The notes: generated from the sequence alone by a model not told the origin. Counted from the stretch's first letter, positions 963 to 46,043 are shown. The stretch is DNA of 64,000 bases from an uncultured Gammaproteobacteria bacterium (GCA_964465375.1 CAYXIJ010000004.1:29642-93641), one strand, 5' to 3'. Program-made: numbers and translations.

Positions 963-3839
963 CTAACTCACTACTTTCTCAGAGCTATTCTGTGCCTGCT
1001 GCAGGAGGTCGATTTGCTCTTTCTCAAATTTTTCAAAATGCTCCTGCCAGTCAGAAAATCGCGTCACTTTCTGAGCCTGCACTGCAGTGACCTTATATTC
1101 GGGGCAATTAGTTGCCCAGTCCGAGTTATCTGTAGTCACTACATTAGCACCCGAGAAAGGATGGTGAAATGTAGTATAGACGACACCTGGCTGCACCCGC
1201 TCAGTAATCACAGCGCGTAGCACAGTCTCTCCAGCGCGGCTCTTCAGTCCCACCCAATCACCGGCCTCAATTCCACGCTGTTCTGCATCATGGGGATGGA
1301 TTTCCAGCACATCTTCATCATGCCACTTGAGGTTTTCAGTGCGGCGCGTCTGGGCACCTACATTGTACTGACTGAGTATCCGGCCCGTGGTCAGTAACAA
1401 TGGATACTTGCTGGTGGTGCGCTCATCTGTTGCCACAAATGGTGTAACTCGAAACAGCCCTTTGCCCCTCACAAATTCATCTACATGCATTGTAGGAGTA
1501 CCCTCAACCGCCTGCTCATTGCAAGGCCATTGAATACTTCCGAGCCTATCTAATTTTTTAAAGCTCACACCAGAAAATGTAGGCGTGAGTCTCGCAATCT
1601 CATCCATAATTTCACTAGGGTGACTGTAATTCATCGGATAGCCCATCGCATTGGATAGGGCCTGTGTTGCCTCCCAATCCTCCAGCCCTGCCATTGGCTC
1701 CATAACCTTGCGTACTGGAGAAATGCGACGCTCTGCATTCGTGAAAGTACCATTCTTCTCAAGAAAAGATGAACCAGGTAGAAAAACATGCGCAAACTTA
1801 GCGGTCTCATTCAAGAATAGATCCTGAACAATCATGCATTCCAGTGATGACAATGCCTTTTCCACGTGCTGGGTATCAGGATCTGACTGGGCTACGTCCT
1901 CGCCTTGCACATAGAGGCCTTTAAATTGTCCACTGACAGCAGCATCAAACATATTTGGGATGCGGTAGCCTGGTTCTGACAACAATTCCACATTCCATTC
2001 GTCTTCAAATAACTTGCGTACAGATGGATCAGAGATATGTCGGTAACCGGGAAGTTCGTGGGGAAAGGAACCCATATCGCAGGAACCCTGCACGTTATTC
2101 TGACCTCGCAAAGGATTCACGCCGACACCTTCACGGCCTAGATTGCCCGTCGCCATTGCGAGATTAGCAATACCCATAACCATAGTAGACCCTTGGCTGT
2201 GCTCAGAAACACCGAGACCGTAATAAATAGCGGCGTTAGGCGCAGCTGCAAATAACCGGACTGCCTGACGCACTTTTTCAGCAGTAACACCAGTGTGCGA
2301 TTCCATTGATTCTGGTGAATTTTCGTCATCAAGAATAAATTTACGCCAATTCTTGTAAGCGACTTCCTCGCAACGAGCACGTATAAATGCCTCATCTTCC
2401 AGGCCCTCACTCAAAACTGTATGAGCCATAGCATTGATCAAGGCAACGTTGGTACCGGGTAATAATCCAAGAAAATATTCTGCCTCAATATGAGGTGATC
2501 TCACCATATCAATGGCGCGTGGGTCTATAACAATTAGCCTTGCGCCTTCCCTGAGCCTTCGTTTCATCTGGGAAGCAAAAACTGGATGGGCTTCTGTGGG
2601 ATTTGCTCCAATCAACATGATGACATCAGCCTTCATTACAGAGTCGAAAGCCTGAGTGCCGGCAGATTCACCCATTGTAGACTTTAATCCGTAGCCAGTC
2701 GGAGAATGACAAACGCGCGCACAGGTATCAACATTGTTATTACCGAATGCAGTACGCACTAGTTTCTGTACTAAGTAAGTCTCTTCATTGGTGCACCGAG
2801 ATGAAGTGATGCCACCAATTGCTCCTTGGCCATATTTTTTTTGAATCTTTTTAAGTTTTTCTGCCGCGAACCCGATGGCTTCATCCCAAGAAACTTCCCG
2901 CCAAGGCCCACGAATACTTTCACGAACCATGGGCGTTGTGATTCGATCCTTATGAGTAGCATAACCAAAAGCAAAACGGCCTTTTACGCAAGAATGGCCA
3001 TGATTGGCATGCCCATCCTTATTGGGAACCATGCGTGTAAGTTCTTCGCCTTTCATTTCCGCTCTAAAAGAACAGCCCACACCACAATATGCACAGGTAG
3101 TAATTACATGGTGCTCTGGTTGCCCTTTTTCTATGAGAGTATTTTCCGTTAGTGTTGCTGTTGGGCAGGCCTGCACACAAGCTCCACAGGATACGCATTC
3201 AGAATCGAGAAAAGACTGGTTCTGACTTGCCGCAACTTTAGATTCAAAGCCTCGGCCATCGATAGTAAGTGCGAACGTACCCTGAACCTCTTCGCAGGCC
3301 CGCACACACCGTGAACACACTATGCACTTGGAGGGATCAAAAGTGAAATAGGGGTTGCTGTTATCTTTTTCCGTATCTAAGTGATTGCTTCCCTCATAGC
3401 CATAACGTACATTCCTGAGGCCTACGGCACCGGCCATATCTTGAAGTTCGCAGTCACCATTCGTAGGACAAGTCAGGCAATCTAGAGGGTGATCCGATAT
3501 ATAAAGCTCCATAACATTTCTACGAACGTCAGCAAGACGCGGACTTTGGGTAGTCACTGTCATACCCTCTGCTACCGCCGTGGTGCAGGAAGCAGGTAAA
3601 CCCTTTTTATTCTGTATCTCGACCAAACAAAGCCGACAAGACCCAAAAGGCTCCAGCATGTCAGATGCACATAGTTTCGGTATATTAATGCCGTCAAGTG
3701 CAGCAGCTCTAAGCACGGTGGTACCGTCAGGTACGGTAACTTGCTTGCCGTCAATCGTGAGGGTTACATTCTTGTCTGATGTAATTTCTGGCGTACCAAA
3801 ATCGGTTGCTCGCCTATAATATTTATAAACTGTACTCAT
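963..3839 (-). CDS. fdsA: NAD-dependent formate dehydrogenase alpha (molybdopterin, Fe-S) subunit
   Basis: Fe-S Cys motifs are present (CRLCLVEI, CLTCPTNGDCE, CIVCSRCVRACEE, CVSCGACVQACPT, CAYCGVGCSF), followed by a molybdopterin oxidoreductase core. I trimmed the start from 3929 to the ATG at 3839 (MSTVYKYYRR), which forms an ATGA overlap with the fdsB stop. Confidence 0.92.
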   Translation of the reverse strand: MSTVYKYYRRATDFGTPEITSDKNVTLTIDGKQVTVPDGTTVLRAAALDGINIPKLCASDMLEPFGSCRLCLVEIQNKKGLPASCTTAVAEGMTVTTQSPRLADVRRNVMELYISDHPLDCLTCPTNGDCELQDMAGAVGLRNVRYGYEGSNHLDTEKDNSNPYFTFDPSKCIVCSRCVRACEEVQGTFALTIDGRGFESKVAASQNQSFLDSECVSCGACVQACPTATLTENTLIEKGQPEHHVITTCAYCGVGCSFRAEMKGEELTRMVPNKDGHANHGHSCVKGRFAFGYATHKDRITTPMVRESIRGPWREVSWDEAIGFAAEKLKKIQKKYGQGAIGGITSSRCTNEETYLVQKLVRTAFGNNNVDTCARVCHSPTGYGLKSTMGESAGTQAFDSVMKADVIMLIGANPTEAHPVFASQMKRRLREGARLIVIDPRAIDMVRSPHIEAEYFLGLLPGTNVALINAMAHTVLSEGLEDEAFIRARCEEVAYKNWRKFILDDENSPESMESHTGVTAEKVRQAVRLFAAAPNAAIYYGLGVSEHSQGSTMVMGIANLAMATGNLGREGVGVNPLRGQNNVQGSCDMGSFPHELPGYRHISDPSVRKLFEDEWNVELLSEPGYRIPNMFDAAVSGQFKGLYVQGEDVAQSDPDTQHVEKALSSLECMIVQDLFLNETAKFAHVFLPGSSFLEKNGTFTNAERRISPVRKVMEPMAGLEDWEATQALSNAMGYPMNYSHPSEIMDEIARLTPTFSGVSFKKLDRLGSIQWPCNEQAVEGTPTMHVDEFVRGKGLFRVTPFVATDERTTSKYPLLLTTGRILSQYNVGAQTRRTENLKWHDEDVLEIHPHDAEQRGIEAGDWVGLKSRAGETVLRAVITERVQPGVVYTTFHHPFSGANVVTTDNSDWATNCPEYKVTAVQAQKVTRFSDWQEHFEKFEKEQIDLLQQAQNSSEKVVS

Positions 3840-5398
3840 ATCCTCTTGGGATTGTGGGCTTTCATATCCTCTGAGAAATGGTCCAGTACACTGATCACTG
3901 GAAAGGGTGCCATCCCTCCCAAAGCACATAAAGATCCTTCTACCATCGTGTCACAAAGATCCCTTAGTAGTTCAATATTCGTGTGTTCATTCTCTCCATT
4001 TCTAATTTTATCAATAACTTCTACACCGCGAACGGAACCAATTCTGCAGGGCGTACACTTGCCACAGGACTCGATCGCGCAGAATTCCATAGCAAACCGG
4101 GCCTGCTCTCCCATATCCGTACTATCATCAAACACCACTAGACCTCCGTGACCAATCATTGCACCGATTTCAGCGAATGCTTCGTAGTCAAGCGGAGTTT
4201 TAAACTGCGACGGGTGCAAATAGGCACCAAGCGGACCACCAGCTTGCACAGCTCGTATGGGTCGGCCTGTAGCTGTGCCACCGCCAAACTCTTCAAGAAA
4301 TTGCCCTAATGGCTGACCAAAAGCTATCTCAACCAAGCCAGCCCGCTCTATGTTACCTGAAAGCTGAACTGTTAATGTACCCCGAGACCTCCCACTGCCA
4401 TAATTCTTATAATAATCTGCACCCTTGGCTAGAATAATTGGCACAGACGCCAGGGTAATTACATTATTCACAACTGTAGGCGCCCCAAAGAGCCCTTTGA
4501 TAGCAGGTAACGGCGGCCGAAACCTAATCTGGCCGCGCTTACCCTCTAAGCTCTCCAGCATAGAGGTCTCTTCGCCGCATATGTAAGCACCAGCAGCCTC
4601 ACGAACCTCCAAATGAAAGGTCTTAGAGCTACCCGCCACATCCTTTCCAAGGTAGCCAGCGGAATAGGCAATTTTGATCGCCTTGGTCATAACCTCAATA
4701 GCAAGTGGGTACTCAGATCTCAAATAAATGTAGCCTTGGGTTGCGCCAACAGCCAGACCAGCTATGCTCATACCTTCAATGAGAACGAATGGATCGCTCT
4801 CCATTATCATTCGATCAGCAAAAGTACCCGAGTCACCCTCATCAGCATTACACGTAATATATTTCTGTTCTGCGGGTGTCTCTAGCACAGTTTTCCATTT
4901 AACCCCAGTTGGAAAAGCCGCACCACCGCGGCCACGCAAACCCGATTCAGTCACGGTACTAATAATCTTATTGCCAGTCATCCCGACTGCTTTCTCAAGA
5001 CCCTTATATCCACCGTATGTCTCGTAGTCTTCTAATGAAAGTGGTTCCGTAATCCCGACTCGACGAAATGTGAGGCGAGACTGTGCTGCCAGGTAAGGGA
5101 TGGATTCCGTAGAACCTAGGGATTTCGGGTGGTCGTTACTGTTTAAAAAATCTGCGGCAAACAACCCAGGAACGTCGTCAGGCTCTACAGGACCATAGGC
5201 AAAACGTTCTCCTTCTCTCTCTACCTCAACCAACGGCTCCAGCCAATACAGGCCACGGGAACCATTGCGAACGATCTCTATAGAGGCCTTGGACGTAGCT
5301 GCCAAACGAGAAATCCCCTCTGCCACAGCATCGGCACCCATGGACCGAGCAGTAGTGTCGGCCGGCACAAACACCTTGAAAATACTATGCTTTGTCAT
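3836..5398 (-). CDS. fdsB: NAD-dependent formate dehydrogenase beta subunit (NuoF-like NAD/FMN/4Fe-4S)
   Basis: Contains the GRGGAAFPTG FMN/NADH motif and the ESCGKCTPCR 4Fe-4S motif. I trimmed the start to the ATG at 5398 (MTKHSIFKVF), which overlaps the fdsG 3' end by 14 nt. Confidence 0.9.
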   Translation of the reverse strand: MTKHSIFKVFVPADTTARSMGADAVAEGISRLAATSKASIEIVRNGSRGLYWLEPLVEVEREGERFAYGPVEPDDVPGLFAADFLNSNDHPKSLGSTESIPYLAAQSRLTFRRVGITEPLSLEDYETYGGYKGLEKAVGMTGNKIISTVTESGLRGRGGAAFPTGVKWKTVLETPAEQKYITCNADEGDSGTFADRMIMESDPFVLIEGMSIAGLAVGATQGYIYLRSEYPLAIEVMTKAIKIAYSAGYLGKDVAGSSKTFHLEVREAAGAYICGEETSMLESLEGKRGQIRFRPPLPAIKGLFGAPTVVNNVITLASVPIILAKGADYYKNYGSGRSRGTLTVQLSGNIERAGLVEIAFGQPLGQFLEEFGGGTATGRPIRAVQAGGPLGAYLHPSQFKTPLDYEAFAEIGAMIGHGGLVVFDDSTDMGEQARFAMEFCAIESCGKCTPCRIGSVRGVEVIDKIRNGENEHTNIELLRDLCDTMVEGSLCALGGMAPFPVISVLDHFSEDMKAHNPKRI

Positions 5399-5882
5399 GC
5401 TCTGGCTCTGACTCCCCAGTAAGGAGTTTATCCAAGCGCTCTGGCGTAACCCTTCCATGTACCGTCTTGTCTATCATTATCGAGGGAGAGCATGCGCAAT
5501 TACCAAGACAATATATTGGCTCTAAGCTATAACGCCCATCTTGGGTTGTGCCATGAAAGCTCACACCCAATGATTGCTTAACATGTGACTCAAGAGTCCG
5601 GGCACCCATGGATTGGCAAGCTTCAGCTCTGCAAATATAAAGTGTGTGTTTGCCTGGCGGGGATGTACGAAAAAAATGATAGAAACTAATTACCCCATGC
5701 ACTTCGGCGCGCGACAGGTTTAAGGCCTGCGCAACAATAGGGATCGCATATTCTGGTATAAATCCCAGTTGGTCTTGGATCGCGTGCAGAACAGGTAGAA
5801 GCGGGCCAGGGCGACTGGCCTCACGTTCTAGGATTGCGAATATACGCTGATTTTCCTCCGCGCTTTCCTGGTTATCATTCAC
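5385..5882 (-). CDS. fdsG: NAD-dependent formate dehydrogenase gamma subunit (NuoE-like 2Fe-2S)
   Basis: NuoE-type cysteine pattern (CRAEACQ ... CLGNCACSP). It is the first gene of the fds cluster. Confidence 0.85.
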   Translation of the reverse strand: MNDNQESAEENQRIFAILEREASRPGPLLPVLHAIQDQLGFIPEYAIPIVAQALNLSRAEVHGVISFYHFFRTSPPGKHTLYICRAEACQSMGARTLESHVKQSLGVSFHGTTQDGRYSLEPIYCLGNCACSPSIMIDKTVHGRVTPERLDKLLTGESEPEHDKA

Positions 5883-7402: not shown

Positions 7403-7770
7403 TGCTTTGCTCCAGGATTAGGGAACGAATCGGTATCCTCATCCCCCTCCCGGGGATTCAGACATTGGAAATCTTTCTCCACAAGAACTACCAGTTGCTT
7501 ATCCTTACTCAATGGTAACTGAAAACTGATAGAAACCTGGTCTACTTGATTCCATTGATCTACCTTATGACTAGGAAGCGCTATCTGGATACAGTGGTTC
7601 TTGTAACTAGCTTGGGCCGGTTCACTAGGGACAACATCGAGCCGATAACTTAAATGATCCTCAGGTGAAAACTCTAAAGTATCTTCAAGATATCCGTACT
7701 TGGTAATTTGAGTGAGTTCGGCCTGAGAAACCCGAACACGCAGCGAGTTACCGCGAATTCTTAGCTTCAT
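7399..7770 (-). CDS. Hypothetical protein (123 aa), translationally coupled to the M20 hydrolase gene
   Basis: Clean ORF with a 4-nt overlap onto the downstream gene. I cannot name a family with confidence. Confidence 0.55.
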   Translation of the reverse strand: MKLRIRGNSLRVRVSQAELTQITKYGYLEDTLEFSPEDHLSYRLDVVPSEPAQASYKNHCIQIALPSHKVDQWNQVDQVSISFQLPLSKDKQLVVLVEKDFQCLNPREGDEDTDSFPNPGAKQ

Positions 7771-7932
7771 CTCTTAGGCTTCCCCTGGTAATCTACTGCA
7801 AACAAGTTACCCAGTCTCATCGAGTTAAATGCCAAAGAGGTGATTCTTAAGCCTTTGCCATATAATCGCAACTGCATCGGTCAATAAATCGATTACCAGT
7901 AACAGGAATGCTTAGCTTGAGGGGCTTGTCAC

Positions 7933-9399
7933 ATGACGGGTAAGTGCGTCGGCATCAGTGGCCTTGCGGTCTATGTGCCACCTTATCGGGTTGATCTTGA
8001 GCGGTGGTGTGATTGGACCAAGAAGCCGTGGGATAAAACCTGCGCTGTAGTAGGACGTAGCTTCCGAATGCGTGGCCCCCACCAGAGTGTCTACACAATG
8101 GCGGCCACTGCTGTCATGCGCCTGATAGAAAATTATCAAATTGACCCCAACCGGGTAAGATTTTTAGGATTTGGTACTGAATCTAGTACCGACAACTCGG
8201 CGGGAGCCGTTATCATTAAAGGAATGCTGGACGAGGCTCTTCAGGCAAAAGGCCTTCAGCCACTTAATCGAAATTGTGAGGTTCCCGAGATAAAACATGC
8301 TTGTCTCGGTGGCATCTACGCCTTAAAACACGGCTTGCGCTATCTGGCGCTCGAAGAGGAAGATTCCTGTGCAATAGTAGTAAGCGCAGACATTGCCGAG
8401 TACGCTCGTGGGAGCTCAGGAGAGCCTACACAAGGAGCTGGCGCAGTAGCTATGCTGCTCGAGCAAAAACCAAAAATGTTGGCGGTTGAGTTAAAACATA
8501 TTGGCTCTGCCTCTGCATACCGAGCCGTTGATTTCCGTAAACCCGTATTGCGAAATATCATTCGGGGTACACTCAATTGCCATTTCCAAGACTTGCCCGT
8601 GTTTAACGGAAAATACTCCATTACCTGCTATCTGGACGAAACGCTGCATGCACTACAAGACATGTTGCGTCGCATGAGGAAAAATCCCTCTGATTATTAC
8701 CGCAGCCTAAGCGCAGTCTTTATGCATCGGCCCTATCACCGAATGCCAATAACTTCCTTTGCTATGAGCTATCTTTTTGGACTAGCCAGAAATGGAGAAA
8801 CAGGGGAAAAAGAGCTTGCCAAACACTGCGGCCGCGCTTCCATAAATGTGGATGAAATAATTAGAGAAATGCGCTCGACACCAGATATTCTGCAATTAGT
8901 CAAGAATCGAAACATTGATGATGATGTATACCCGTTAAGTATTCAACTACTTAAGAATTTCTGCGATAGTGATTTTTTTGAAGGTGCTGTGGCCCCAAAA
9001 ATGGCCTTGGGGTCTGAAGCTATGAAGGACATCGGTAATGTTTACTGTGCAGCTTTGCCAGCTTGGATAGCTGCGGGATTAGAAGATGCTCTTGTACAAA
9101 AACGAGACATTACTGGAGAACAAATACTTGCTGTTGGCTACGGAAGTGGAGATGCAGCAGAAGCAATCCCTATGGTAGTCATGAAGGGCTGGAAAAAAGC
9201 TGCTGCTCAAATAGGTTTTAATCTCTCCCTCCAGCCCCAGCAGAATCTCACCCAAATGCAGTACGAAAGCCTTCACGATACCGGTGACGCGCAAGGGCTA
9301 GAGAGCCCAAATGAAGGATTTATTGTAGACTCAATTGGATCCAGCGAACATCCAGGCTTCAGCGATGAAGGTATTGAGTATTACAAGTTTGTTCGCTAA
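7933..9399 (+). CDS. mvaS: Hydroxymethylglutaryl-CoA synthase family protein
   Basis: HMGS/thiolase-fold catalytic motifs GTESSTDNS (Glu) and IKHACLGG (Cys). The mevalonate-pathway context supports the call. Confidence 0.85.
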   Translation: MTGKCVGISGLAVYVPPYRVDLERWCDWTKKPWDKTCAVVGRSFRMRGPHQSVYTMAATAVMRLIENYQIDPNRVRFLGFGTESSTDNSAGAVIIKGMLDEALQAKGLQPLNRNCEVPEIKHACLGGIYALKHGLRYLALEEEDSCAIVVSADIAEYARGSSGEPTQGAGAVAMLLEQKPKMLAVELKHIGSASAYRAVDFRKPVLRNIIRGTLNCHFQDLPVFNGKYSITCYLDETLHALQDMLRRMRKNPSDYYRSLSAVFMHRPYHRMPITSFAMSYLFGLARNGETGEKELAKHCGRASINVDEIIREMRSTPDILQLVKNRNIDDDVYPLSIQLLKNFCDSDFFEGAVAPKMALGSEAMKDIGNVYCAALPAWIAAGLEDALVQKRDITGEQILAVGYGSGDAAEAIPMVVMKGWKKAAAQIGFNLSLQPQQNLTQMQYESLHDTGDAQGLESPNEGFIVDSIGSSEHPGFSDEGIEYYKFVR

Positions 9400-9496
9400 A
9401 AAAATTCTTTTCGTTTAATCTTGCGACCTCTTAGTGCGTGAGGAATAATCAACACATTAGCGCACCAATAACACGCGCTGTAAATGCCGATTCCCT

Positions 9497-10069
9497 CTAC
9501 CCAGCATGAAGCCCAAGAATCACGCTTAAGTGATTACTCCTTATATTGGCCCATTCCATTTTGAACCAAGGTGTGAATTTCTGGGGCTGCTCAGCAAGTT
9601 CGGCTTCCAGTTCTCTGATCCCAAGAAATCGCCAATCCGCCACCTCTTTACTATTAGCATCCACTCTGCCTTCAAAAAGCCCGTAATAGACCCAACAAAG
9701 TTCATGCTCTGCCCCCACACCACCATACTGGGCGTGGTACTGAAATTTATATAAAAAAACCAATGGACAATTAAAACCTAACTCCTGGGCTAAACGTCGA
9801 GTAACTGCGGCCTCCATGGATTCACCGTACCTGGGATGGGAACAGCACGCATTTGACCAATAGTTAGGCCATAGTAATTTTTCTGCGCTACGTTTTTGAA
9901 TCAATACTTCATTATTAGCGTTAAATATGAATATAGAAAAAGCTCGGTGAAGTATGCCGTTACCAATATGGCAATCACCCTTGCTTTTATAGCCGATTTC
10001 CCTGTCCCTCTCGTCTACTATAATAAGCTCCTCATTAGAGCTACACACAATCTCCCTATGAGCCATCAA
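9497..10069 (-). CDS. idi: Isopentenyl-diphosphate delta-isomerase, type 1 (Nudix)
   Basis: NACCSHP catalytic Cys motif and the EHELCWVY Glu motif. It overlaps the 3' end of the HMGR-MVK gene. Confidence 0.9.
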   Translation of the reverse strand: MMAHREIVCSSNEELIIVDERDREIGYKSKGDCHIGNGILHRAFSIFIFNANNEVLIQKRSAEKLLWPNYWSNACCSHPRYGESMEAAVTRRLAQELGFNCPLVFLYKFQYHAQYGGVGAEHELCWVYYGLFEGRVDANSKEVADWRFLGIRELEAELAEQPQKFTPWFKMEWANIRSNHLSVILGLHAG

Positions 10070-12332
10070 GTGTCACTCCCAGATTTACTGAAATTGCTTG
10101 AAACCCAGCATCCTGGATAGCATTAATTACGGGCTCAGTTGCGCCATTACAAATAGCGATAATCGACCCTCCTCCCCCTCCTCCAGTCAGTTTTGCACCA
10201 AGAGCACCATTTTTTCGTGCTATTTCTACTAGTTGTTCAAGTTCTGGTGTTGATACCTGGAGAGCATTCAGCATCCCGTGGTTAATATTCATCAGCTCAC
10301 CCAATGCCTCGATATCTTCATCTTGAATCGCCTTCACGGCACTTAATACTAGTGTGTCAATCTCATCAAAAATACGCTCATAAAGTTTTTTGTCCTGTCG
10401 CCATGCTTCACGAACCCGACCCACAGTTTTAGCCGTTAAACCCTCGCGGCCAGTGATTCCGATAACAGCCGGGATCGGTTTGCGGATATTTAGAGGCTCA
10501 ACTAACGGAGGATCTCCAGGCCGAAATACGAGGGGCTTTGCATAACAGGCTAACGTGTTGTCTAGGCCACTTGGATTTCCATGGGCAATTTTTTCCGATT
10601 CATACGCCAACTGATTCACATCTTCGTTAGAGAGCCCTATCCGATAATGTCGATCAAGTGCTCGCACTATCGCAACGGCAATCGCAGCAGAACCACCTAA
10701 TCCCATACTACGAGGTACATCTGGAAATACCTCAATGCACATGCCACGATTACTCAAACCAAGCCTATCAAGTATCACACCAGCAGGCCGCTCAAAAGAA
10801 CGTCGCTCCGCAAAATTTCCTGCCAACTCATACTCAACGCCCCACCTGGGAATCATAAGCAAAATCCCCTCTTCTCGATCTTCTACAAGGGCCTTTACGG
10901 TGATGGGTATAGGCGTGGCAATTGCATGACGCCCATAAACAACTGAATGCTCTCCAAGCAGAACCACCTTGCCGTAGCCAGTGCCCATTGCAGATTCATT
11001 TGGATCTGCTTGTTTATCTAATCCATCAATTCTAAGTTCATTCCTTTTTAGCTCATCAGCAATTTCCTGGGCTTTCCAGATTTTAACGTCACCACTCTGA
11101 ATAACACGATCTAAAACTTCATCAAAAATTTCTTCTGACACACCAGCAGCTGTAACCACGCTGCGTGCGTGTAATGTCATATGACCCTTCTGGATACCTT
11201 CGGTTGCCAAAGCCCGAATTGCCGCAAAATTTTGTGCGAGACCTACAGACGCCATTACCTTTGCTAATTCAGTGGCTGAACCCACATCAAGCAAATTTAG
11301 ATTAAGAGATACCGTCGGATTGGAATCGATTGGAGCGCCCACTATCCCCACTTTAATAGGTAGCTCAATGGCGCCGCAAAGATTTCCATCCTCATCTGAC
11401 CACCATCGGGTAAGAGAAGTGTACCTACCCCCCCTTGCCGCATACGCATGAGCACCGGCCTCAATAGCCCGCCAGTCATTACCAGTGGCAATAGCAAGGG
11501 GATCGATCCCATTCATAATACCCTTATTGTGAGTAGCAGCCCTGTATGGATCTACTGAAGCAAAATCAGCTGCAACAATAATGCCGTCACGTGCTTGTTC
11601 TCCGGTATAACCGCGACCAGCTAATTCCTTCAACTCAATCTTGCAACTTGCGCGCACTAATGAGCGATCAGTTAGATTGGAAAGGATGCGCAAAAATACC
11701 TCTCCACCTGTAATCGATTCTATTAAAGGTGCTACACCCTCACACATCCCATTAACCAAGTTGGCGCCCATGGCATCTCGGGTATCTACCAACAGATGAA
11801 TAACTAGTGTCCTGCGACCGGTGGAAGGAAGCGGATGAACAAACATTTCGATATCTCTAGCGCCTCCGCCTCGAGCTACCATATTAGGGTGGAAGCTATT
11901 AGCTAAATTCAAAATTTCTTGTGTCCGCTCTTTAATCTTCTGCTTGGCACTCTCGATATTTGGTACATCGACCATTTGAATCTGCCCAATCAGAATAGGG
12001 TCGGTAGCTTCAGCCTGAAACCCATCGCATTTCCTAATAAGCTTGGAAGCAGCGCCCAATGCAGCCACGATAGAAGGCTCTTCAACCACCATAGGCACTA
12101 TGTATTGCTTGTTATTTACAAGAAGATTCATGCCTAGCCCAAGAGGTAACCCCATAACACCAACTACGTTCTCTATCATTCTGTCAGCCGCCGCCAAATC
12201 CAGCGTATGACGCCCAGAAGATAACGCACGAAAATCGGTTGCTGTTAATAAACCTCGGTCGCGCACAATCTTGACTCGTTCTTCTACGCTTAGCTTGTAG
12301 AACTCTGGAATTCTTAAGCCACTCTCGTCCAC
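10056..12332 (-). CDS. Bifunctional fusion of class II HMG-CoA reductase (aa 1 to about 428) and mevalonate kinase (aa about 451-758)
   Basis: One uninterrupted 758-aa ORF. The N-terminal part carries VVEEPSIVAA, ATHNKGIMNGID, TGNDWRAIEAGAHAYA and QKGHMTLHARS. Glu85, Lys270, Asp286 and His384 sit at almost the same positions as the catalytic residues I recall for the Pseudomonas mevalonii enzyme. The C-terminal part carries GHMP motifs GKVVLLGEHSVVYG, GLGGSAAIAVA and KLTGGGGGGS. The GTG start at 12332 is preceded by an AAGGAG Shine-Dalgarno sequence. Confidence 0.9.
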   Translation of the reverse strand: MDESGLRIPEFYKLSVEERVKIVRDRGLLTATDFRALSSGRHTLDLAAADRMIENVVGVMGLPLGLGMNLLVNNKQYIVPMVVEEPSIVAALGAASKLIRKCDGFQAEATDPILIGQIQMVDVPNIESAKQKIKERTQEILNLANSFHPNMVARGGGARDIEMFVHPLPSTGRRTLVIHLLVDTRDAMGANLVNGMCEGVAPLIESITGGEVFLRILSNLTDRSLVRASCKIELKELAGRGYTGEQARDGIIVAADFASVDPYRAATHNKGIMNGIDPLAIATGNDWRAIEAGAHAYAARGGRYTSLTRWWSDEDGNLCGAIELPIKVGIVGAPIDSNPTVSLNLNLLDVGSATELAKVMASVGLAQNFAAIRALATEGIQKGHMTLHARSVVTAAGVSEEIFDEVLDRVIQSGDVKIWKAQEIADELKRNELRIDGLDKQADPNESAMGTGYGKVVLLGEHSVVYGRHAIATPIPITVKALVEDREEGILLMIPRWGVEYELAGNFAERRSFERPAGVILDRLGLSNRGMCIEVFPDVPRSMGLGGSAAIAVAIVRALDRHYRIGLSNEDVNQLAYESEKIAHGNPSGLDNTLACYAKPLVFRPGDPPLVEPLNIRKPIPAVIGITGREGLTAKTVGRVREAWRQDKKLYERIFDEIDTLVLSAVKAIQDEDIEALGELMNINHGMLNALQVSTPELEQLVEIARKNGALGAKLTGGGGGGSIIAICNGATEPVINAIQDAGFQAISVNLGVTLDGS

Positions 12333-12341
12333 GGCTTCTCC

Positions 12342-13337
12342 TTAAATATGACCGTTAATACAGAGGCCCTGCTTATCAAGGCCAAAGTTGATAATTTTGT
12401 ACCGACTATTCTCCACCGTTCTCAAAAATGCTTTGAGCGCTCCAGCATCTGCCGAAAAAGCTAATCCTAGATCTCCTCCGCCCGCTCCACTTATCTTATA
12501 CGCCACATTATATTTCTTTGCCTCGCTGCCTATCGCCCTGTGTGCACGAGTTACTATATCAACACCCATAGCCTCACCTAACTCTCCCAGGCACTCCCCG
12601 TATTTAGTCAATGCACTAAGAAATGCTACACCATCATTTTCTGCTGTGGCAGCATGGCCAATTTTAGCCAAACAAGTCAGCTCCGTTAATTGCTTTGACG
12701 CCTGGGCTGGAAATGCATCTTGCCAAGCATTGAATCGCTTTAAAAAGTCTTTCGTCGATGCAGAGCTACCCACGCAAATACCCACGAATGCTACACCGCT
12801 TGGCAGCTGGATTGAATCAACTACAGGCGCAGAATCTTCTCGTAACTCAAAAGAAATCATCGAACCAAAAAGGCTAGCCGCCACATCGAGGCCACTGCCA
12901 AATCCGCCCTGTAAGTTCCGATGCCAACTAATAAGTTTTCTCAGGTCCTCGTCGTTTTTTTTGATACCACCTAAACCCGCGAAAGTACACCAAACTCCTG
13001 CCCACGCCGTGAGTGCCGCTGCGCTGGAACCGATCCCAAGCTTACCTAGCTCGCTGTATAACGCCCTAGAATCCAAATTCCCTCTCCAAGGATATTCCAA
13101 GCGACCATCATTAATTACCATGTCTACTAGGGATAGCCCAGATTCAGCCAATGAGTCAAATCTAAACTCCCGCAGTCTGGGAGCCCAGCTCCGAAGATGA
13201 CACAGGGTCTCGAAATTTTTGGAAATTTCGGCTCGACAGTAACGATCAACTGCTAGAACTAGCGCGGGCGCACCTTTGAGTACCGCATATTCACCTAGAA
13301 CGACAACTTTACCTGGGGCCCTTGCACTGACATTCAC
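12342..13337 (-). CDS. mvaK2: Phosphomevalonate kinase (GHMP family)
   Basis: Motifs APGKVVVLGEYAVL, GIGSSAAALTAW and KISGAGGGDLG. It lies between the MVD and HMGR-MVK genes and uses a GTG start. Confidence 0.85.
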   Translation of the reverse strand: MNVSARAPGKVVVLGEYAVLKGAPALVLAVDRYCRAEISKNFETLCHLRSWAPRLREFRFDSLAESGLSLVDMVINDGRLEYPWRGNLDSRALYSELGKLGIGSSAAALTAWAGVWCTFAGLGGIKKNDEDLRKLISWHRNLQGGFGSGLDVAASLFGSMISFELREDSAPVVDSIQLPSGVAFVGICVGSSASTKDFLKRFNAWQDAFPAQASKQLTELTCLAKIGHAATAENDGVAFLSALTKYGECLGELGEAMGVDIVTRAHRAIGSEAKKYNVAYKISGAGGGDLGLAFSADAGALKAFLRTVENSRYKIINFGLDKQGLCINGHI

Positions 13338-13340
13338 GAT

Positions 13341-14318
13341 TCAATCCCACTCTACCCCGGCTCCGAGTCCACTGCGAATCACTTCCTTCACTCCAGGTAC
13401 AGACTGAAGAACACCGGCTACGTACTGCACGGCAGAAGGCTCACAAACAGCTTTGACCTGCGGGCCAGCATCAATGGTGAAAAATACAGGAACACCATCC
13501 TGCTGCAGTTTCTGAATTGCATGAATGCACTCGACCGTAGCTCCATTCCAATACATTAGCGCTGGTTGAGTTGTCATGGCAACGGAGTGCATCTTCAGAC
13601 AATTAGACTGCGCTACGTCAGCAAGCATTTTAAAATCTCGATTCAAAATAGCACCCCGCCCCCGCTCTAAGTCTTTAGCGCTAGCATCCAACCAAGCCAC
13701 ATAATAAGGGGAGGTGGCCACAGATCTATTCATACCTTGTCGAGATCCTACTGCCTTTTCAGATCTATCTGTAAGCGCAATAACAACTCCAAGAGGCCAA
13801 GCAGACAATTCAAGCAATGGTTCCGCAAAGCTACCCTCCCCATCTCTGCTTTCATCCGCATGCATCTCGACGAATCCACCGAAAACGGAACGGGCGGCAG
13901 ATCCGGAACCTTGCCGTGCGATAATGCTTAATTCCCGAGGCGATACCTCTAACTTCAAAGCCACTGATGCAGCTGCCGCCAAGGCAGCAAACCCCGAGGC
14001 AGATGATGCCAATCCGGCTCCAAGAGGAAAATTATTCTTGCTAGTAACACTGGCGCAAGTTTTTATATCCGCACGTTCGCGTAAGATGTTTAAAAACTTC
14101 GAGATTCTAGGAACATATTCAGGCCGACTTTCCCCATCCAAAATAAGTTCATCTACTGAAAGACTTTCCTCAAAGGAAACAACAGTCTCCGAACAAAGCG
14201 CATCGAGGGTAATAGATATCGAGCCTACTGCAGGAATGTTCATATTTGAATCTGCCTTACCCCAATACTTGATCAAAGCGATATTGGCTCTTGCGGTCGC
14301 TTTAGACTGTGAATTCAT
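13341..14318 (-). CDS. mvaD: Diphosphomevalonate decarboxylase
   Basis: NIALIKYWGK and GLASSASGFAALA motifs. Its stop is 3 nt from the PMK start. Confidence 0.9.
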   Translation of the reverse strand: MNSQSKATARANIALIKYWGKADSNMNIPAVGSISITLDALCSETVVSFEESLSVDELILDGESRPEYVPRISKFLNILRERADIKTCASVTSKNNFPLGAGLASSASGFAALAAAASVALKLEVSPRELSIIARQGSGSAARSVFGGFVEMHADESRDGEGSFAEPLLELSAWPLGVVIALTDRSEKAVGSRQGMNRSVATSPYYVAWLDASAKDLERGRGAILNRDFKMLADVAQSNCLKMHSVAMTTQPALMYWNGATVECIHAIQKLQQDGVPVFFTIDAGPQVKAVCEPSAVQYVAGVLQSVPGVKEVIRSGLGAGVEWD

Positions 14319-14427
14319 AGTTAAGGATAATCGTAGCGCTTTATACAGGAATATTTAGAGCGCTCTTTCGATGGTACGATGGACAACCATGATAGCACGA
14401 CATCAAAAAATGCCCTTCGGACAGCGG

Positions 14428-15297
14428 ATGGATAACTATATTCAGCGGGTCGAAAAAAAACTAGTCGAAATTTTAGCTGATGAAAGTAGTGCCCCAACAC
14501 CACTTCAAGAAGCCATGAATTATGCAGTTTTTGGAGCCGGAAAACGGATTCGGCCATTGCTGAGCTATGCTAGTGGAGAACTTCTGGACCTAAAAGACAG
14601 TGTTATTGATGCAATTGCAGCTTCGATAGAATTGGTGCATACCTACTCTTTAGTTCATGATGACTTGCCGGCTATGGATAATGATGATCTTCGCCGCGGT
14701 CGTGCGGCGACTCATAGAGAATTTGATGAAGCCGTAGCGATTCTAGCTGGAGACGCCTTACAAACACTTGCCTTCTATTGCCTAACCTCTGATCCCGAGC
14801 TTTGCAAACAAACCAAAGCTCAGACAAAAATTATACACTGGCTAGCTAGAGCAGCCGGCCCACGCGGGATGGTTGGAGGGCAAACACTGGACATTTTAGT
14901 TGAGGGTAAGCAGGCTAATGAGACTTTGCTAAAAGATATCTATAAACGCAAAACTGGTGAACTCATTCGGGCTGCTATTATGATGCCGACCGAACTCACA
15001 AAAATTAGCACCCAAGAAAAACGTAGTCTCGATAAATTTGCACAAAACATTGGTCTTGCGTTTCAGATTCGAGATGATCTCCTAGAAGTAGAAGAAGACA
15101 CCATAACTCTCGGTAAAAGCGCCCAATCGGACAAGAAACAATTAAAAGCTACTTATCCATCTATGCTAGGTATTGAGCAAGCACATCAAAAGTTAAATGA
15201 AGTCTATGGTCTGGCGCTGGACGCACTGCAGACATTTGGCGATAGCTCGGAAAGCTTAATTAAATTATCCGAGCTTATTATCAGTCGAAAAAAATAG
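14428..15297 (+). CDS. ispA: Farnesyl diphosphate synthase / (2E,6E)-geranyltranstransferase
   Basis: First Asp-rich motif VHDDLPAMDNDDLRRG and second Asp-rich motif FQIRDDLLE. The start is uncertain. The ORF opens at 14371, and I chose the ATG at 14428 (MDNYIQRVEK) by length comparison with IspA. Confidence 0.88.
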   Translation: MDNYIQRVEKKLVEILADESSAPTPLQEAMNYAVFGAGKRIRPLLSYASGELLDLKDSVIDAIAASIELVHTYSLVHDDLPAMDNDDLRRGRAATHREFDEAVAILAGDALQTLAFYCLTSDPELCKQTKAQTKIIHWLARAAGPRGMVGGQTLDILVEGKQANETLLKDIYKRKTGELIRAAIMMPTELTKISTQEKRSLDKFAQNIGLAFQIRDDLLEVEEDTITLGKSAQSDKKQLKATYPSMLGIEQAHQKLNEVYGLALDALQTFGDSSESLIKLSELIISRKK

Positions 15298-15364
15298 AGC
15301 GCCTCTCTTTTACTTTATAATTCTAATAGAACAACAGCAATTTTAATAAAAATCTTTTTCGACT

Positions 15365-16603
15365 ATGTTTTTGATCGATCTTGGTATCTCCGCAACCGTC
15401 CGGACCCTTAATGCTGGGGGTGCCATGCTAAAAAAGTGGGGGCTTGCGACCCCAGACCTTAGTTTCAAAAAACTTGAATATCTGGCCAAAAAACGAACAG
15501 GGCTTTCTAATTTTGGTGACTGGGCATTCCAGAGGCCACTTGAAAAACTCATAGGGGCATATGAACAAGAAGCGAATCTAACTATGTTAGGCCGTATCAC
15601 TGTGCACGAACTCATTGCTAATGTCCTTATGAACCTTCTTTTATTAGAAGAAAAAAGACGATGCCAACCCAGCATAGAAGCCGAGCCGATTACTGATCCC
15701 GTTTTTATTATTGGCCTACCCCGGACCGGAACCACACTTCTTCATGGACTAATGGAGCAGGATACTAAAGTTAGGGTACCCCAAACTTGGGAGGTTATGT
15801 TTCCAGCAAACTGTTCAGGCAATACTGAAGAATCTAGCAACGCACGAGACCGTACCCGCAATCGTCTTAATTGGGCTAACCGGTTAGCACCTGGATTCAA
15901 GCGCATCCACAACATTGCGCCTGAACTCCCGCAAGAATGTATAGTTATAACTGCGCACGTCTTTCTTAGTACCCAGTTCCACACTGCGTGCAATGTTCCC
16001 TCCTATCAAGACTGGTTTGAACAAGAACCTCAAAAATTAGCATATGAATTCCACCATCGATTACTACAACATCTGCAAATCGGGCGCACCCCTCAACATT
16101 GGGTACTTAAAGCGCCTGGCCATCTATTCGCATTAGATGCCCTCCTAAAACGCTACCCAGACGCTAAAATTATTCAAACTCACAGAAACCCCCTACAAGT
16201 AATGCCCTCTATGGCTAGCCATGCTACCGTACTGAGACGTGCACTCAGTAACCAAGTTAACCCAAAAGAAGTAGCCCATGACTGGGCTATGCGTTGGAAT
16301 TTAGCTCTCGGAAAATTCTTGGGAGTTAGGGATCGATCACCCTCAGATCAATTCTTAGATGTGTACTACGACGATATTGAACGCGAACCACTGGAAACAA
16401 TTTATCGCATTTACGATTTTTTAGGATGGAAGATAGGGGATAGGGCCAATCAAGCTATGAAAATATTTTTAGATTCCAATCCAAAAAACAAGTATGGCGT
16501 ACATCGTTACTCACTCGGACAATATGGTTTGAGTCCAATGAGGGAACGGAAAAGATTCCGAGCCTATTGCGAACGTTTTTCTATTTCGACAACAGAGAAA
16601 TGA
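15365..16603 (+). CDS. Sulfotransferase family protein (PAPS-dependent type)
   Basis: 5'-phosphosulfate-binding loop GLPRTGTTLLH and 3'-phosphate-binding region IIQTHRNPL. It is 67 nt downstream of ispA on the same strand. Confidence 0.75.
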   Translation: MFLIDLGISATVRTLNAGGAMLKKWGLATPDLSFKKLEYLAKKRTGLSNFGDWAFQRPLEKLIGAYEQEANLTMLGRITVHELIANVLMNLLLLEEKRRCQPSIEAEPITDPVFIIGLPRTGTTLLHGLMEQDTKVRVPQTWEVMFPANCSGNTEESSNARDRTRNRLNWANRLAPGFKRIHNIAPELPQECIVITAHVFLSTQFHTACNVPSYQDWFEQEPQKLAYEFHHRLLQHLQIGRTPQHWVLKAPGHLFALDALLKRYPDAKIIQTHRNPLQVMPSMASHATVLRRALSNQVNPKEVAHDWAMRWNLALGKFLGVRDRSPSDQFLDVYYDDIEREPLETIYRIYDFLGWKIGDRANQAMKIFLDSNPKNKYGVHRYSLGQYGLSPMRERKRFRAYCERFSISTTEK

Positions 16604-19806: not shown

Positions 19807-19835
19807 TTGCTATGGACCTAAGTCAGGATTATATT
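19807..19835 (+). promoter_or_regulatory. Sigma70-type promoter candidate for the B12 riboswitch and btuB transcript
   Basis: TTGCTA (19807-19812), a 17-nt spacer, then TATATT (19830-19835), about 10 nt before the riboswitch begins. Confidence 0.45.
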
Positions 19836-19844
19836 GCCTATTGA

Positions 19845-20035
19845 CGGTGCCCCGCTGAGGGTTTTAAAGGGAACACGGTAAGGCCTCAAGTCGATGCCGT
19901 GGCTGCACCCGCAACTGTAAGTGGCGAGCTCATCTTTCAACATCTGCCACTGGGCTACATAGCCTGGGAAGGCGAAGGGTTGAGCATGGAGCCGCAAGCC
20001 AGGAAACCTGCCGTCATGTCGTCCATCCGGGAGGC
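19845..20035 (+). promoter_or_regulatory. Cobalamin (B12) riboswitch
   Basis: The conserved blocks appear in canonical order: AAGGGAACACGGTAAG, GCTGCACCCGCAACTGTAAG, GCCACTGGG..CCTGGGAAGGCG, and the B12 box AAGCCAGGAAACCTGCC (19996-20012). It lies directly upstream of a TonB-dependent receptor gene. Confidence 0.9.
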
Positions 20036-20190
20036 GGGTTGACTCAACGGAGCGGTCTTTTACCGCAGCGGCGATGCTGAGAGAGCGGGTTACCGGCGTG
20101 TGATTCCAGAGACCATGCTGCAGCTCAAAAGGGCTAGTCGATAACTCGGTTCTCTAGTGTCTGGTGTCGTCACTACGGGAATACAGAGTC

Positions 20191-22113
20191 ATGTCTGTCA
20201 AAAGTCTAGCCCAACTTGGTGTTATTGCCTTGCTTGGTGTATTAACGGCATATCCCTCTAGTGCCCGATCACAGTCCGCTCGACCAGAAATTGAAGAAAT
20301 CGTTACCAGCGCTAGCTCCATACCCTTAGAGGCACGGAAAGTGGGCAGCTCTATTACTGTTATCACAGCGAAAGATCTCCAAGAACAAGGTATTCGATAC
20401 GCGGCTGATGCTCTACGCAACGTACCCGGAGTAGCTGTAAATCGCGCCGGATCATTCGGTAGCTTCACTCAGATCAGGCTACGCGGAACAGAGAGTAACC
20501 ACGTACTGGTTCTAATTGATGGAATCGAAGTAGCACCTGCCAACTCGGGAGAATTTGATTTTTCCACCTTGCTAACCGACAACATTGAACGCATCGAAAT
20601 CCTCCGTGGACCGCAGAGTGGGCTGTATGGGTCAAATGCACTAGCAGGTGTAATCAGTGTGACGACCCGTCAAAATCTTGAATATCCTGACCTGTCGGTC
20701 TCCCTTGAGCATGGATCGTTCAAAAGTTCGCAGTTGTCATTCAATGGAAGAGTCGCCAGTGACAGGAAAAGCGGCAATATCAGTGTCATCTATCGGGGCA
20801 CTGAAGGTGCAAATATTTCCCAATTGGGCGACGAAAAAGACGGTGACAAAAATCTTACGATTTCTGGTCACGGCGACCTCTTGCTCCACAAAAATCTCTG
20901 GTTGGACGGTTCCTACCGTTACGTCGAAAAGCATACTCAAACGGATGATTTTGACTTCACAGGAGGGCCTACCCAAGGTTGGTCCATCGATGGTCCAGGG
21001 CAATCAAATACCCGCGACGTTAATCTTGCAGCGAGGGCAACTTGGTTAAACAGAAAAGGTAATTGGTCTACTCAATTTAGTGCAGCCTACACTGAAGCAG
21101 AATTAGATGCAGATGGAAATTTTGGCCCTTTTGGCTCTAAAACATCAAGAACTAAATTTGCTCTACAAACGACGATGACTATGGATCAACCATCAGCGCA
21201 AATAACTCATTTTCTCACTGGGTTTGCCGAGCACGAGGAAGAAATTTTTCGCGATAGATTTCCTTCGGACCCTTCTCAATACCCCACACTTACCAGAATG
21301 CTTAATGGAATAGGAGTCGAATACCGTACTGAGTTCAGCCAGAAACTCTACCTATCAGCGGTACTGCGCCGTGACATAAATAAAGAATTTGACGATGCGA
21401 CAACCCACCGATTAACAGCTACCTACCTAGCTCATCAAAAACAAACACGCTTTCACACCAGCTACGGTACGGGAGTAACTAATCCTACCTTTGTCGAGCA
21501 ATTTGGATTTATACCGAAGATCTTTACCGGAAATCCCGATCTGAAGCCGGAAAAATCTACGGGCTGGGATGTAGGTATTGAACATAGCTTTTCTGAAGAT
21601 CGTGCATCCATTGATATCACATACTTCAGATCAAATTTACAAGACGAGATCAAAACTATTTTCCCCTCTGTCAGCAATGCTGCGGGGAAAAATCATAGGC
21701 GCGGTGTTGAGGTAAGTTTTTTAGGTAGACTTAACGAGCAAATCAACCTAAGTGGGTCTTATACCTATTTACACTCCAAGGACCTGGACGGAACTACCGA
21801 AATTCGTAGACCAAAACAAACAGCAAACGTGAGTTTCAATTATCGATTTCCCGGAGAGCGCACTAGAATTCATGCAAGCGCAATACACAACGGGAGTATG
21901 CTGGATTATGACTACAGAAAAGGCTATGTACCCGCTAAAAACCAGCTAGATAGTTACACGCTGATTAATCTTGGTGGCTCGATACTGCTAACAAAACGAT
22001 TAGAATTCTACGGATGGATAGAAAATTTGTTCGACCAGCAATACGAGGAAGTGCTGACCTATAACACCCCTGGTCGTGGATTTTACGCCGGAATTAGATT
22101 ATCGATAAACTGA
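20191..22113 (+). CDS. btuB: TonB-dependent receptor, vitamin B12 transporter-like
   Basis: Signal peptide and plug-domain motifs (ITVITAKDLQEQG, LRNVPGV, IEILRGPQSGLYGSNALAGVISV) followed by a beta-barrel. The riboswitch lies upstream. I trimmed the start to the ATG at 20191 (MSVKSLAQLG). Confidence 0.85.
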   Translation: MSVKSLAQLGVIALLGVLTAYPSSARSQSARPEIEEIVTSASSIPLEARKVGSSITVITAKDLQEQGIRYAADALRNVPGVAVNRAGSFGSFTQIRLRGTESNHVLVLIDGIEVAPANSGEFDFSTLLTDNIERIEILRGPQSGLYGSNALAGVISVTTRQNLEYPDLSVSLEHGSFKSSQLSFNGRVASDRKSGNISVIYRGTEGANISQLGDEKDGDKNLTISGHGDLLLHKNLWLDGSYRYVEKHTQTDDFDFTGGPTQGWSIDGPGQSNTRDVNLAARATWLNRKGNWSTQFSAAYTEAELDADGNFGPFGSKTSRTKFALQTTMTMDQPSAQITHFLTGFAEHEEEIFRDRFPSDPSQYPTLTRMLNGIGVEYRTEFSQKLYLSAVLRRDINKEFDDATTHRLTATYLAHQKQTRFHTSYGTGVTNPTFVEQFGFIPKIFTGNPDLKPEKSTGWDVGIEHSFSEDRASIDITYFRSNLQDEIKTIFPSVSNAAGKNHRRGVEVSFLGRLNEQINLSGSYTYLHSKDLDGTTEIRRPKQTANVSFNYRFPGERTRIHASAIHNGSMLDYDYRKGYVPAKNQLDSYTLINLGGSILLTKRLEFYGWIENLFDQQYEEVLTYNTPGRGFYAGIRLSIN

Positions 22114-22133
22114 TTTTAGGACTCATCCGCTAA

Positions 22134-46026: not shown

Positions 46027-46043
46027 AAAACTAACCAAGACTT

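Follow-up and report, generated by a model that had tools for sequence, protein, structure and literature searches.

The window analysed here is a 64,000-nucleotide stretch of DNA from an uncultured Gammaproteobacteria bacterium (GCA_964465375.1, CAYXIJ010000004.1:29642-93641), and all positions are counted from its first letter. Its minus strand carries, at 10056-12332, a single open reading frame (ORF) that joins a class II 3-hydroxy-3-methylglutaryl coenzyme A (HMG-CoA) reductase (HMGR) to a mevalonate kinase (MVK) of the GHMP family. The features of this gene are the following:

10056-12332, minus strand: fused gene hmgR::mvk, a single ORF of 758 codons plus a TAG stop, with a GTG start
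12338-12343, minus strand: Shine-Dalgarno sequence AAGGAG, read from the sequence, 5 nucleotides (nt) 5' of the GTG start
11049-12332, minus strand: class II HMGR domain, residues 1-428, including the C-terminal flap at about 378-428
10983-11048, minus strand: interdomain linker KRNELRIDGLDKQADPNESAMG, residues 429-450
10056-10982, minus strand: MVK (GHMP) domain, residues 451-758 and the stop

The translation of 10056-12332 contains no internal stop codon and yields one protein of 758 amino acids (aa). The GTG start is credible, since the AAGGAG sequence sits just before it and shares nucleotides with the stop codon (TAA, 12342-12344) of the gene preceding the fusion. A preliminary description of this DNA had claimed one 758-aa ORF with two complete enzymes, and the analysis bears this out, the ORF being single and both of its halves scoring above curated equivalog cut-offs.

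The reductase half, described beforehand as a full-length class II HMGR reaching from residue 1 to about 428, contains the quoted motifs at the spacing given: EEPSIVAA at residues 84-91, ATHNKGI at 266-272, GNDWRA at 284-289, and GHMTLHA at 383-389. The HMG-CoA_red domain (Pfam ID PF00368) matches residues 16-389 (E value 8.7e-107, 357.8 bits, model positions 2-368 of 368), and the NCBIfam model TIGR00532 matches residues 7-389 with 404.7 bits against a cut-off of 259.95 (model positions 23-395 of 395). The class I HMGR model TIGR00533 reaches 45 bits against a cut-off of 442, and the fusion reductase is of the soluble class II type, without the N-terminal membrane domain of the class I enzymes. 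Residues 6-428 are collinear with residues 5-425 of the 429-aa Delftia acidovorans enzyme (PDB ID 6dio), and residues 7-422 align to residues 6-419 of the 428-aa Pseudomonas mevalonii enzyme (PDB ID 1qax), so the reductase is complete, including its C-terminal flap. The catalytic residues E85, K270, N274, D286, and H384 correspond to P. mevalonii E83, K267, N271, D283, and H381, the roles of which are established in the literature on that enzyme. All five are invariant in an alignment of 16 diverse fusions, the window protein among them, with 32-62% identity to the query.

The Asp that confers NADH preference, D146 in P. mevalonii, is equivalent to D154 of the R. pomeroyi enzyme, and mutation of the latter to Lys resulted in dual cofactor use (PMC12292504). 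In the window protein this position is occupied by His148, and an Asp is found there in only 1 of the 16 members of the fusion family. Because His148 replaces the NADH-enforcing Asp, the reductase might use NADPH or both cofactors, an assignment that we make with low confidence.

The remainder of the ORF had been described as a complete GHMP mevalonate kinase with all three motifs. Motifs I to III are indeed present and conserved, namely GKVVLLGEH with K455, MGLGGSAA with S548, and KLTGGGGGG at residues 714-722, and the catalytic segment consists of E580 followed by S588-G-L-D591 (PSGLDN). The residues K455, E461/H462, S548, E580, S588, D591, T633, and K714 are invariant in the 16 fusions, and in the columns checked the Gly-rich motif III is also kept, apart from a single replacement of T716 by Ser. 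We take K455, E580, S548, and D591 to match K13, E193, S146, and D204 of rat MVK. An alignment of catalytic residues was among the tests by which the preliminary description had wanted its reading judged; across the 16 fusions, all of these residues are kept in both halves.

The Pfam domains GHMP_kinases_N and GHMP_kinases_C are found at residues 520-597 and 665-740, respectively. The NCBIfam mevalonate kinase model TIGR00549 matches residues 454-726 with 232.7 bits against a cut-off of 163.05 (model positions 3-275 of 276), and a second MVK model, NF003036, scores 186.6, which is under its stricter cut-off of 403. Residues from about 447 to 750 align with entire mevalonate kinases, the best being those of Leishmania major (PDB ID 2hfs, E value 1.9e-42) and Staphylococcus aureus (PDB ID 2x7i). 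Models for other GHMP enzymes, namely phosphomevalonate kinase (PMK), galactokinase, and homoserine kinase, score far lower, with at most 61 bits in the case of PMK. A function as MVK, rather than as PMK or with another GHMP activity, is supported indirectly by these low PMK scores and by a neighbouring GHMP gene that seems to fill the PMK role.

The AlphaFold (AF2) model based on the 16-fusion alignment has a mean predicted local distance difference test (pLDDT) value of 84.5 and a predicted template modelling (pTM) score of 0.54. Its low-confidence stretches are the first four residues, residues 42-67, and linker residues 433-443, the last with pLDDT values below 50. A pTM as low as 0.54 is what one would expect of two flexibly linked domains that lack a fixed mutual orientation. 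An AF2 run on an alignment of close homologues was poor compared with the model from the diverse alignment (mean pLDDT 65.7, pTM 0.45). In a Foldseek search against the PDB, the reductase half matches P. mevalonii HMGR with target-normalised template modelling (TM) scores of 0.85-0.91, where the fold follows flap-containing chains across 425 columns, and the kinase half matches MVK structures with TM scores of 0.79-0.88. Foldseek found no PDB chain spanning both halves (query-normalised TM scores of at most 0.50), and sequence and fold searches gave no PDB entry with the HMGR-MVK architecture.

The linker had been placed at residues 429-450, nt 10983-11048, in exact agreement with our boundaries. 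Across homologues, 43-107 residues separate R390, the Arg of the GHMxLHAR motif, from the MVK lysine K455, and the linker, of 10 to more than 60 residues in the homologous fusions, varies in length and sequence. Since it is variable and predicted to be disordered, a loose tether fits better than a fixed tunnel. The kinase domain has no free N-terminus and begins a few residues after Met449. An internal translation start at Met449 was considered and rejected: the Met is invariant in the near clade only and occurs in 8 of 48 lineages. No Shine-Dalgarno sequence lies 5' of Met449, and none is conserved in the other lineages. Met449 is probably a relic of the former mvk start codon.

The identical 758-aa protein is found on four contigs, half of them 50-200 kb and half 0.2-1 Mb long, among them a 148-kb Logan assembly of SRR8062339 with unchanged gene order. 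The 90% cluster of the fusion holds full-length members from JGI, NCBI, ENA, and Logan, and a partial protein on another JGI contig (P0123) spans the HMGR-MVK junction. All three Pfam domains are present in at least 120 clusters formed at 90% identity, which match the query at 76-100% identity; their proteins are 756-762 aa long, with one 639-aa exception, and contigs of 1.5, 2.4, and 5.45 Mb are included. Hundreds of homologues, closed chromosomes included, differ by indels solely in multiples of three. A 312-aa kinase-only protein of a close cluster (P0130), which looked like a natural split, was rejected as an artefact, since it comes from a frameshift-ridden long-read contig that breaks the reductase into fragments.

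The genes around the fusion, two of them upstream in the same operon and one at its end, encode further enzymes of isoprenoid precursor biosynthesis:

13341-14318, minus strand: diphosphomevalonate decarboxylase (MDD), first operon gene; TIGR01240 with 273.6 bits against 171, Pfam MVD-like_N and MDD_C
12342-13337, minus strand: divergent GHMP kinase, second operon gene; candidate PMK by elimination
9497-10069, minus strand: type 1 isopentenyl diphosphate (IPP) isomerase (IDI, NUDIX), last operon gene; NF002995 with 159.8 bits against 127
7933-9399, plus strand: divergent HMG-CoA synthase of 488 aa, convergent with the operon; Pfam HMG_CoA_synt_N and HMG_CoA_synt_C
14371-15297, plus strand: farnesyl diphosphate (FPP) synthase; NF045485 with 329.6 bits against 275

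The operon genes are tightly packed, with gaps of 3 to 9 nt or overlaps. Up to 14 nt at the 3' end of the fusion are shared with the IDI ORF, for which the candidate starts are 10069 (TTG), 10066 (ATG), and 10045 (GTG). The order MDD, PMK, HMGR::MVK, IDI is found in most of the 51 fused loci with flanking sequence. The kinase encoded at 12342-13337 scores about 70 bits on PMK and on MVK models, below all curated cut-offs, and reaches no Pfam gathering threshold, and it keeps its position in at least 40 related loci. By elimination, and because of this conserved operon position, its product would be the phosphomevalonate kinase, and it may represent a divergent PMK lineage for which no model exists. 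The HMG-CoA synthase is unusually long and falls under every NCBIfam equivalog cut-off (167 bits against 360 for the bacterial model); it adjoins the operon at 53-74% identity in related loci (L001, L018, L037-L044, and others). The FPP synthase gene diverges from the operon across an intergenic gap of 52 nt. Directly 3' of it, on the same strand, lies a sulfotransferase gene (15365-16603, plus strand, 412 aa, Sulfotransfer_3, E value 3.6e-43), and the pairing of FPP synthase and sulfotransferase also occurs on a Logan contig with an identical fusion. A scan of 7700-15500 for promoters and terminators gave counts at or below chance. Neither a separate MVK nor an HMG-CoA lyase was found among the 39 window ORFs scanned. 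Since HMG-CoA synthase, the PMK-like kinase, MDD, IDI, and FPP synthase surround the fusion, we read the locus as a biosynthetic mevalonate pathway that lacks only the thiolase.

The preliminary description had implied that the fusion is rare, which was an overstatement, given the at least 120 90% clusters in the near clade, with precomputed Pfam domains, and 51 species genomes. When 1.84 billion representatives of the 50% clusters were searched exhaustively, about 18 intact full-length fusions at 36-62% identity were retrieved. For the genome scan, with one genome per GTDB species, ORF continuity was checked for the best 80 loci, 51 of which are single-ORF fusions; the check is needed to judge coverage, as the locus finder joins adjacent genes into one long match. 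The gammaproteobacterial carriers are Rhodanobacteraceae, Nevskia, Woeseiaceae, and Pseudomonadales metagenome-assembled genomes (MAGs). Further carriers are found in Candidatus Rariloculaceae, Acidobacteriota, Calditrichota, Balneolaceae, Ignavibacteriaceae, Myxococcales, Methylomirabilota, and Nakamurella. The closest genome among the GTDB species representatives belongs to Candidatus Rariloculaceae (74% identity). The species of the window is absent from these representatives and is most likely a gammaproteobacterium close to Candidatus Rariloculales. A cultured carrier is the actinobacterium Cryobacterium psychrotolerans CGMCC 1.5382, in which the fusion lies at about 55607-57897 of NZ_FNFU01000005.1 and both halves score above the cut-offs. 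OZ253541.1 and OY762279.1 are further examples of genomes with the fusion. A tblastn search of the PLSDB plasmids gave 61 records that match HMGR alone, and no record reached a query coverage of 80%.

Apparent fusions in Bacillaceae (Virgibacillus, Oceanobacillus, and Paucisalibacillus) and in one Myxococcales MAG, with matches to query residues 7-729, turned out to be separate adjacent genes. The four Bacillaceae loci and the Myxococcales locus were left uncounted because the ORF check showed separate genes. In L052, L055, L057, and L058 (Oceanobacillus, Paucisalibacillus, and Virgibacillus) and in L062, hmgR and mvk lie on the same strand about 60-200 nt apart.

Neighbour-joining trees were built for the 80 genomes most similar to the query. 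In the tree of the HMGR domain all fusions except one (L050) are set apart from the nearest unfused reductases by a single bipartition with 197 of 200 bootstraps, and the tree of the MVK domain contains the same bipartition, here against the unfused kinases, with 162 of 200. The pairwise distances of the two halves are correlated with r = 0.90 across 47 fusions. The window protein belongs to this clade, with the HMGR-linker-MVK ORF, the MDD, PMK, fusion, IDI operon, and a branching position within the clade. None of the 51 fused genomes of the clade showed a return to split genes. The remaining fusion, from Ignavibacteriaceae, stands apart in both trees, has the operon order fusion, MDD, PMK, and is provisionally regarded as a second, independent fusion. 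For the main clade we provisionally propose one old event, in which neighbouring hmgR and mvk genes probably became joined when the stop between them was lost; the fused gene would then have been passed on with its operon both by descent and by horizontal transfer. Going by the names in the records, the fusion has apparently travelled with the operon through eight or more bacterial groups, including Gammaproteobacteria, Acidobacteriota, Calditrichota, Balneolaceae, Actinomycetota, Myxococcota, and Methylomirabilota, and for this reason it could mark horizontal transfer of the bacterial mevalonate pathway.

Class II HMGR is also found fused to other partners. Single-ORF triple fusions of HMGR, MVK, and IDI occur in a Woeseiaceae MAG (L041, 7980-10796) and in two metagenomic cluster representatives, P0133 (952 aa) and P0135 (928 aa). 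Given the overlap between the IDI ORF and the end of the fusion in the window, such a triple protein could result from a small indel by which the stop is lost and the two frames become one. In P0153 the order is reversed to MVK-HMGR, and in P0162, P0167, and P0197 a PMK-like GHMP kinase is joined to HMGR in operon order. Other proteins combine HMGR with a polyprenyl synthase (P0169), with a squalene/phytoene synthase (P0168 and P0174, the latter with an additional epimerase domain), or with a squalene-hopene-cyclase-like domain (P0178). Judged from these sequences, tight gene packing clearly yields fusions of class II HMGR with whatever adjoins it. In the 763-aa protein P0145 the flap His of the reductase is lost, GHMxLH being replaced by RPRDSAQRA, and other HMGR motifs are altered, with the kinase motifs intact; this could be a degenerate reductase domain or the result of poor assembly.

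We propose that the ORF encodes a working bifunctional enzyme of the biosynthetic mevalonate pathway, to which we assign a probability of about 0.85. The HMGR domain would reduce (S)-HMG-CoA to (R)-mevalonate with two NAD(P)H, using Glu85, Lys270, Asp286, and the flap residue His384, and a flexible linker of about 20 residues would tether the kinase directly to the end of the mobile flap. The kinase would then use ATP to phosphorylate mevalonate at its C5 position; Asp591 would serve as the base, and Lys455, Glu580, and Ser548 would belong to the phosphate and Mg site. The predicted pathway runs from HMG-CoA synthase through HMGR::MVK, the PMK-like kinase, diphosphomevalonate decarboxylase, and IPP isomerase to FPP synthase. 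The fusion would fix a 1:1 expression and the proximity of reductase and kinase. For class II HMGR both reaction directions have been assayed (PMC12292504), and since the reaction is reversible, the ATP-driven kinase would probably pull it towards synthesis.

Several points weigh against this proposal or against parts of it. For every member of the fusion family, activity, cofactor use, and kinetic advantage are deduced from the sequences. The interdomain geometry is predicted without confidence, as the low pTM indicates, and the HMGR active sites, which form at a dimer interface, lie beyond the reach of a monomer model. As IDI, PMK-like, polyprenyl synthase, and squalene/phytoene synthase partners exist, the fusion need not reflect a benefit from handing over mevalonate, and in Virgibacillus, Oceanobacillus, and Paucisalibacillus, where hmgR and mvk are adjacent and separate, the unfused arrangement works. 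The single origin is provisional because the trees are simple and the sample was selected by similarity.

Among the alternatives, an artefact of assembly or gene calling that joins two genes is hardly conceivable. False fusions can arise in search output, as the tool-joined Firmicutes matches show, but here the same protein recurs on four contigs, a further contig spans the junction, and the many homologues with in-frame indels include closed chromosomes. A degradative reductase at a locus that catabolises mevalonate would agree with the name given by NCBI and NCBIfam, "hydroxymethylglutaryl-CoA reductase, degradative", and with the catabolic P. mevalonii enzyme being among the closest solved relatives. 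The operon genes, however, are biosynthetic, a mevalonate-consuming kinase would compete with oxidation, and of the two marks of the P. mevalonii mvaAB type, a linked lyase was not found among the 39 window ORFs scanned and the NAD-specific Asp is replaced by His148, so we consider a catabolic role highly improbable. Scarcely better is the chance that one half is dead or regulatory, for example, a kinase-like sensor controlling the reductase. The distant P0145 indicates that degenerate members can occur, whereas the window protein and 15 diverse homologues all keep every catalytic and motif residue in the two halves, both halves exceed the curated equivalog cut-offs, and the operon offers no other candidate for MVK or HMGR.

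If both halves are active, the question becomes what the covalent link contributes. The fusion could be a near-neutral by-product of operon adjacency that has both activities and brings no kinetic benefit beyond co-expression, which is suggested by the tight spacing of the operon genes, by the HMGR-MVK-IDI triple fusions, by the PMK-like kinase-HMGR fusions that match the operon order exactly, and by the unfused neighbouring pairs in Bacillaceae. Yet none of the 51 clade genomes has reverted to split genes, the sole apparent split being the frameshift-ridden contig mentioned above, and the retention across phyla suggests at least weak selection. Substrate channelling is possible, and a dedicated form of it, in which mevalonate passes straight to the tethered kinase and flap movement is perhaps coupled conformationally, would suit the consecutive nature of the two steps and the attachment of the kinase at the end of the flap, which carries the catalytic His384 and moves in each catalytic cycle. 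It would also suit the persistence of the fusion down to 32% identity to the window protein, the co-evolution of the halves (r = 0.90), and the fact that HMGR-MVK fusions arose at least twice and also exist in the reverse order. Against dedicated channelling speak the unconserved linker with its predicted disorder, the model, which has no confident interdomain interface, and the fusion of non-consecutive partners such as IDI. Because gene packing clearly generates neighbour fusions, we consider strict channelling unlikely and a by-product of adjacency more likely than that, though still short of even odds. More speculative than channelling as such is a mechanical or kinetic coupling of flap opening and product release to phosphorylation. 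If true, it would make the protein an "HMG-CoA to mevalonate 5-phosphate synthase" that is irreversible in effect and truly channels its substrate, and such a flap-coupled fusion could nucleate a larger mevalonate metabolon, as hinted at by the HMGR-MVK-IDI and PMK-HMGR relatives.

Outside the mevalonate locus the window carries ordinary chromosomal genes, AmtB, AcrAB, and GlnRS among them. A cobalamin riboswitch (19828-20029, plus strand, 114.6 bits) precedes a standard B12 uptake operon at 20164-24771, with a TonB-dependent receptor, a periplasmic binding protein, a FecCD permease, and an ATP-binding cassette (ABC) ATPase. A cluster resembling NAD-linked formate dehydrogenase lies at 963-5882 (minus strand) and encodes a 988-aa molybdopterin subunit with Fe-S domains, a Nuo51-like FMN subunit, and a 2Fe-2S thioredoxin-like subunit. 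Molybdenum-cofactor genes (MoaA, MoeA, and XdhC-like) and a ModC-like ABC ATPase are found at 42555-58072. The window contains no tRNA genes and no Rfam family beyond the one cobalamin riboswitch.

In the source databases the fusion is named only "hydroxymethylglutaryl-CoA reductase" or "hydroxymethylglutaryl-CoA reductase, degradative", where the label "degradative" is merely the name of the class II model. Because the proteins are named only as HMG-CoA reductase, pathway reconstruction may score mevalonate kinase as missing, and the reductase may be read as catabolic, in many Gammaproteobacteria, Acidobacteriota, Calditrichota, and other uncultured lineages. A search of the open-access full-text literature, to which this negative applies, found no description of a natural HMGR-MVK fusion, in line with the preliminary description, which knew of no characterised example. 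The fusion is real, old, widespread, and under-annotated, and what it lacks is a name and a characterisation, not a presence in databases. Engineered mevalonate pathways have control points at the reductase and at the kinase, and a compact natural fusion of the two would give them a ready-made part, with the highest value if the kinase pulls the reversible reductase forward. The fusion would also make a clean system to ask whether joining consecutive enzymes gives channelling, and C. psychrotolerans CGMCC 1.5382 provides a cultured source of it.

The nearest known counterpart is the Enterococcus faecalis protein MvaE, which Hedl and colleagues are said to have described in 2002 (a study cited in PMC13370337) as an acetoacetyl-CoA thiolase/class II HMGR. 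Its HMGR half is homologous to the fusion reductase (E value 5e-82) and has been solved (PDB IDs 7m1z and 7m3h). Both proteins are natural bacterial fusions with a class II HMGR half that belong to the biosynthetic mevalonate pathway. The reductase is joined to a thiolase in MvaE and to a GHMP kinase in the window protein, which has no thiolase domain; HMGR is C-terminal in MvaE and N-terminal here; and the fused steps are non-consecutive in MvaE, with HMG-CoA synthase between them, whereas they are consecutive here. MvaE is characterised, whereas the window protein is known from sequence. The preliminary description knew MvaE as the only bacterial fusion of this pathway, which to our knowledge is right for characterised natural mevalonate-pathway fusions but does not extend to sequence databases, where others are found.

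Compared with the D. acidovorans and P. mevalonii reductases (PDB IDs 6dio and 1qax), the reductase half shows a collinear match of about 420 residues including the flap, with 46-50% identity in the structural alignments, the same catalytic Glu, Lys, Asn, Asp, and His, and fold TM scores of 0.85-0.91. Those chains end at the flap after 428-429 aa, whereas the window chain continues into the kinase, and they have the NADH-determining Asp (P. mevalonii D146) where the window protein has His148. The P. mevalonii HMGR is catabolic and paired with HMG-CoA lyase. With the mevalonate kinases of L. major (PDB ID 2hfs), S. aureus (PDB ID 2x7i), and Methanosarcina mazei (PDB ID 6mde) the kinase half has in common a length of about 300 residues, the three GHMP motifs, and its catalytic residues (Lys, Glu, Ser, and Asp), and the folds match with TM scores of 0.79-0.88, yet the identity is only about 27-30%.

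An archaeal complex of thiolase, HMG-CoA synthase, and a DUF35 protein, for which Vögeli and colleagues reportedly showed channelling experimentally in 2018, offers a precedent for coupling an unfavourable early step to the next one and so pulling flux. It is made of separate proteins held together non-covalently and concerns different steps, whereas the fusion described here is covalent. IspDF is a bifunctional enzyme of the methylerythritol phosphate pathway (PMC13001223). Like the HMGR-MVK protein, it occurs naturally and widely and unites two isoprenoid-precursor enzymes of adjacent genes, but it belongs to the other pathway, has other folds, and joins non-consecutive steps. Set beside these systems, the HMGR-MVK fusion is a variant of the bifunctional mevalonate-pathway enzymes, composed of an ordinary class II HMGR and an ordinary GHMP mevalonate kinase.

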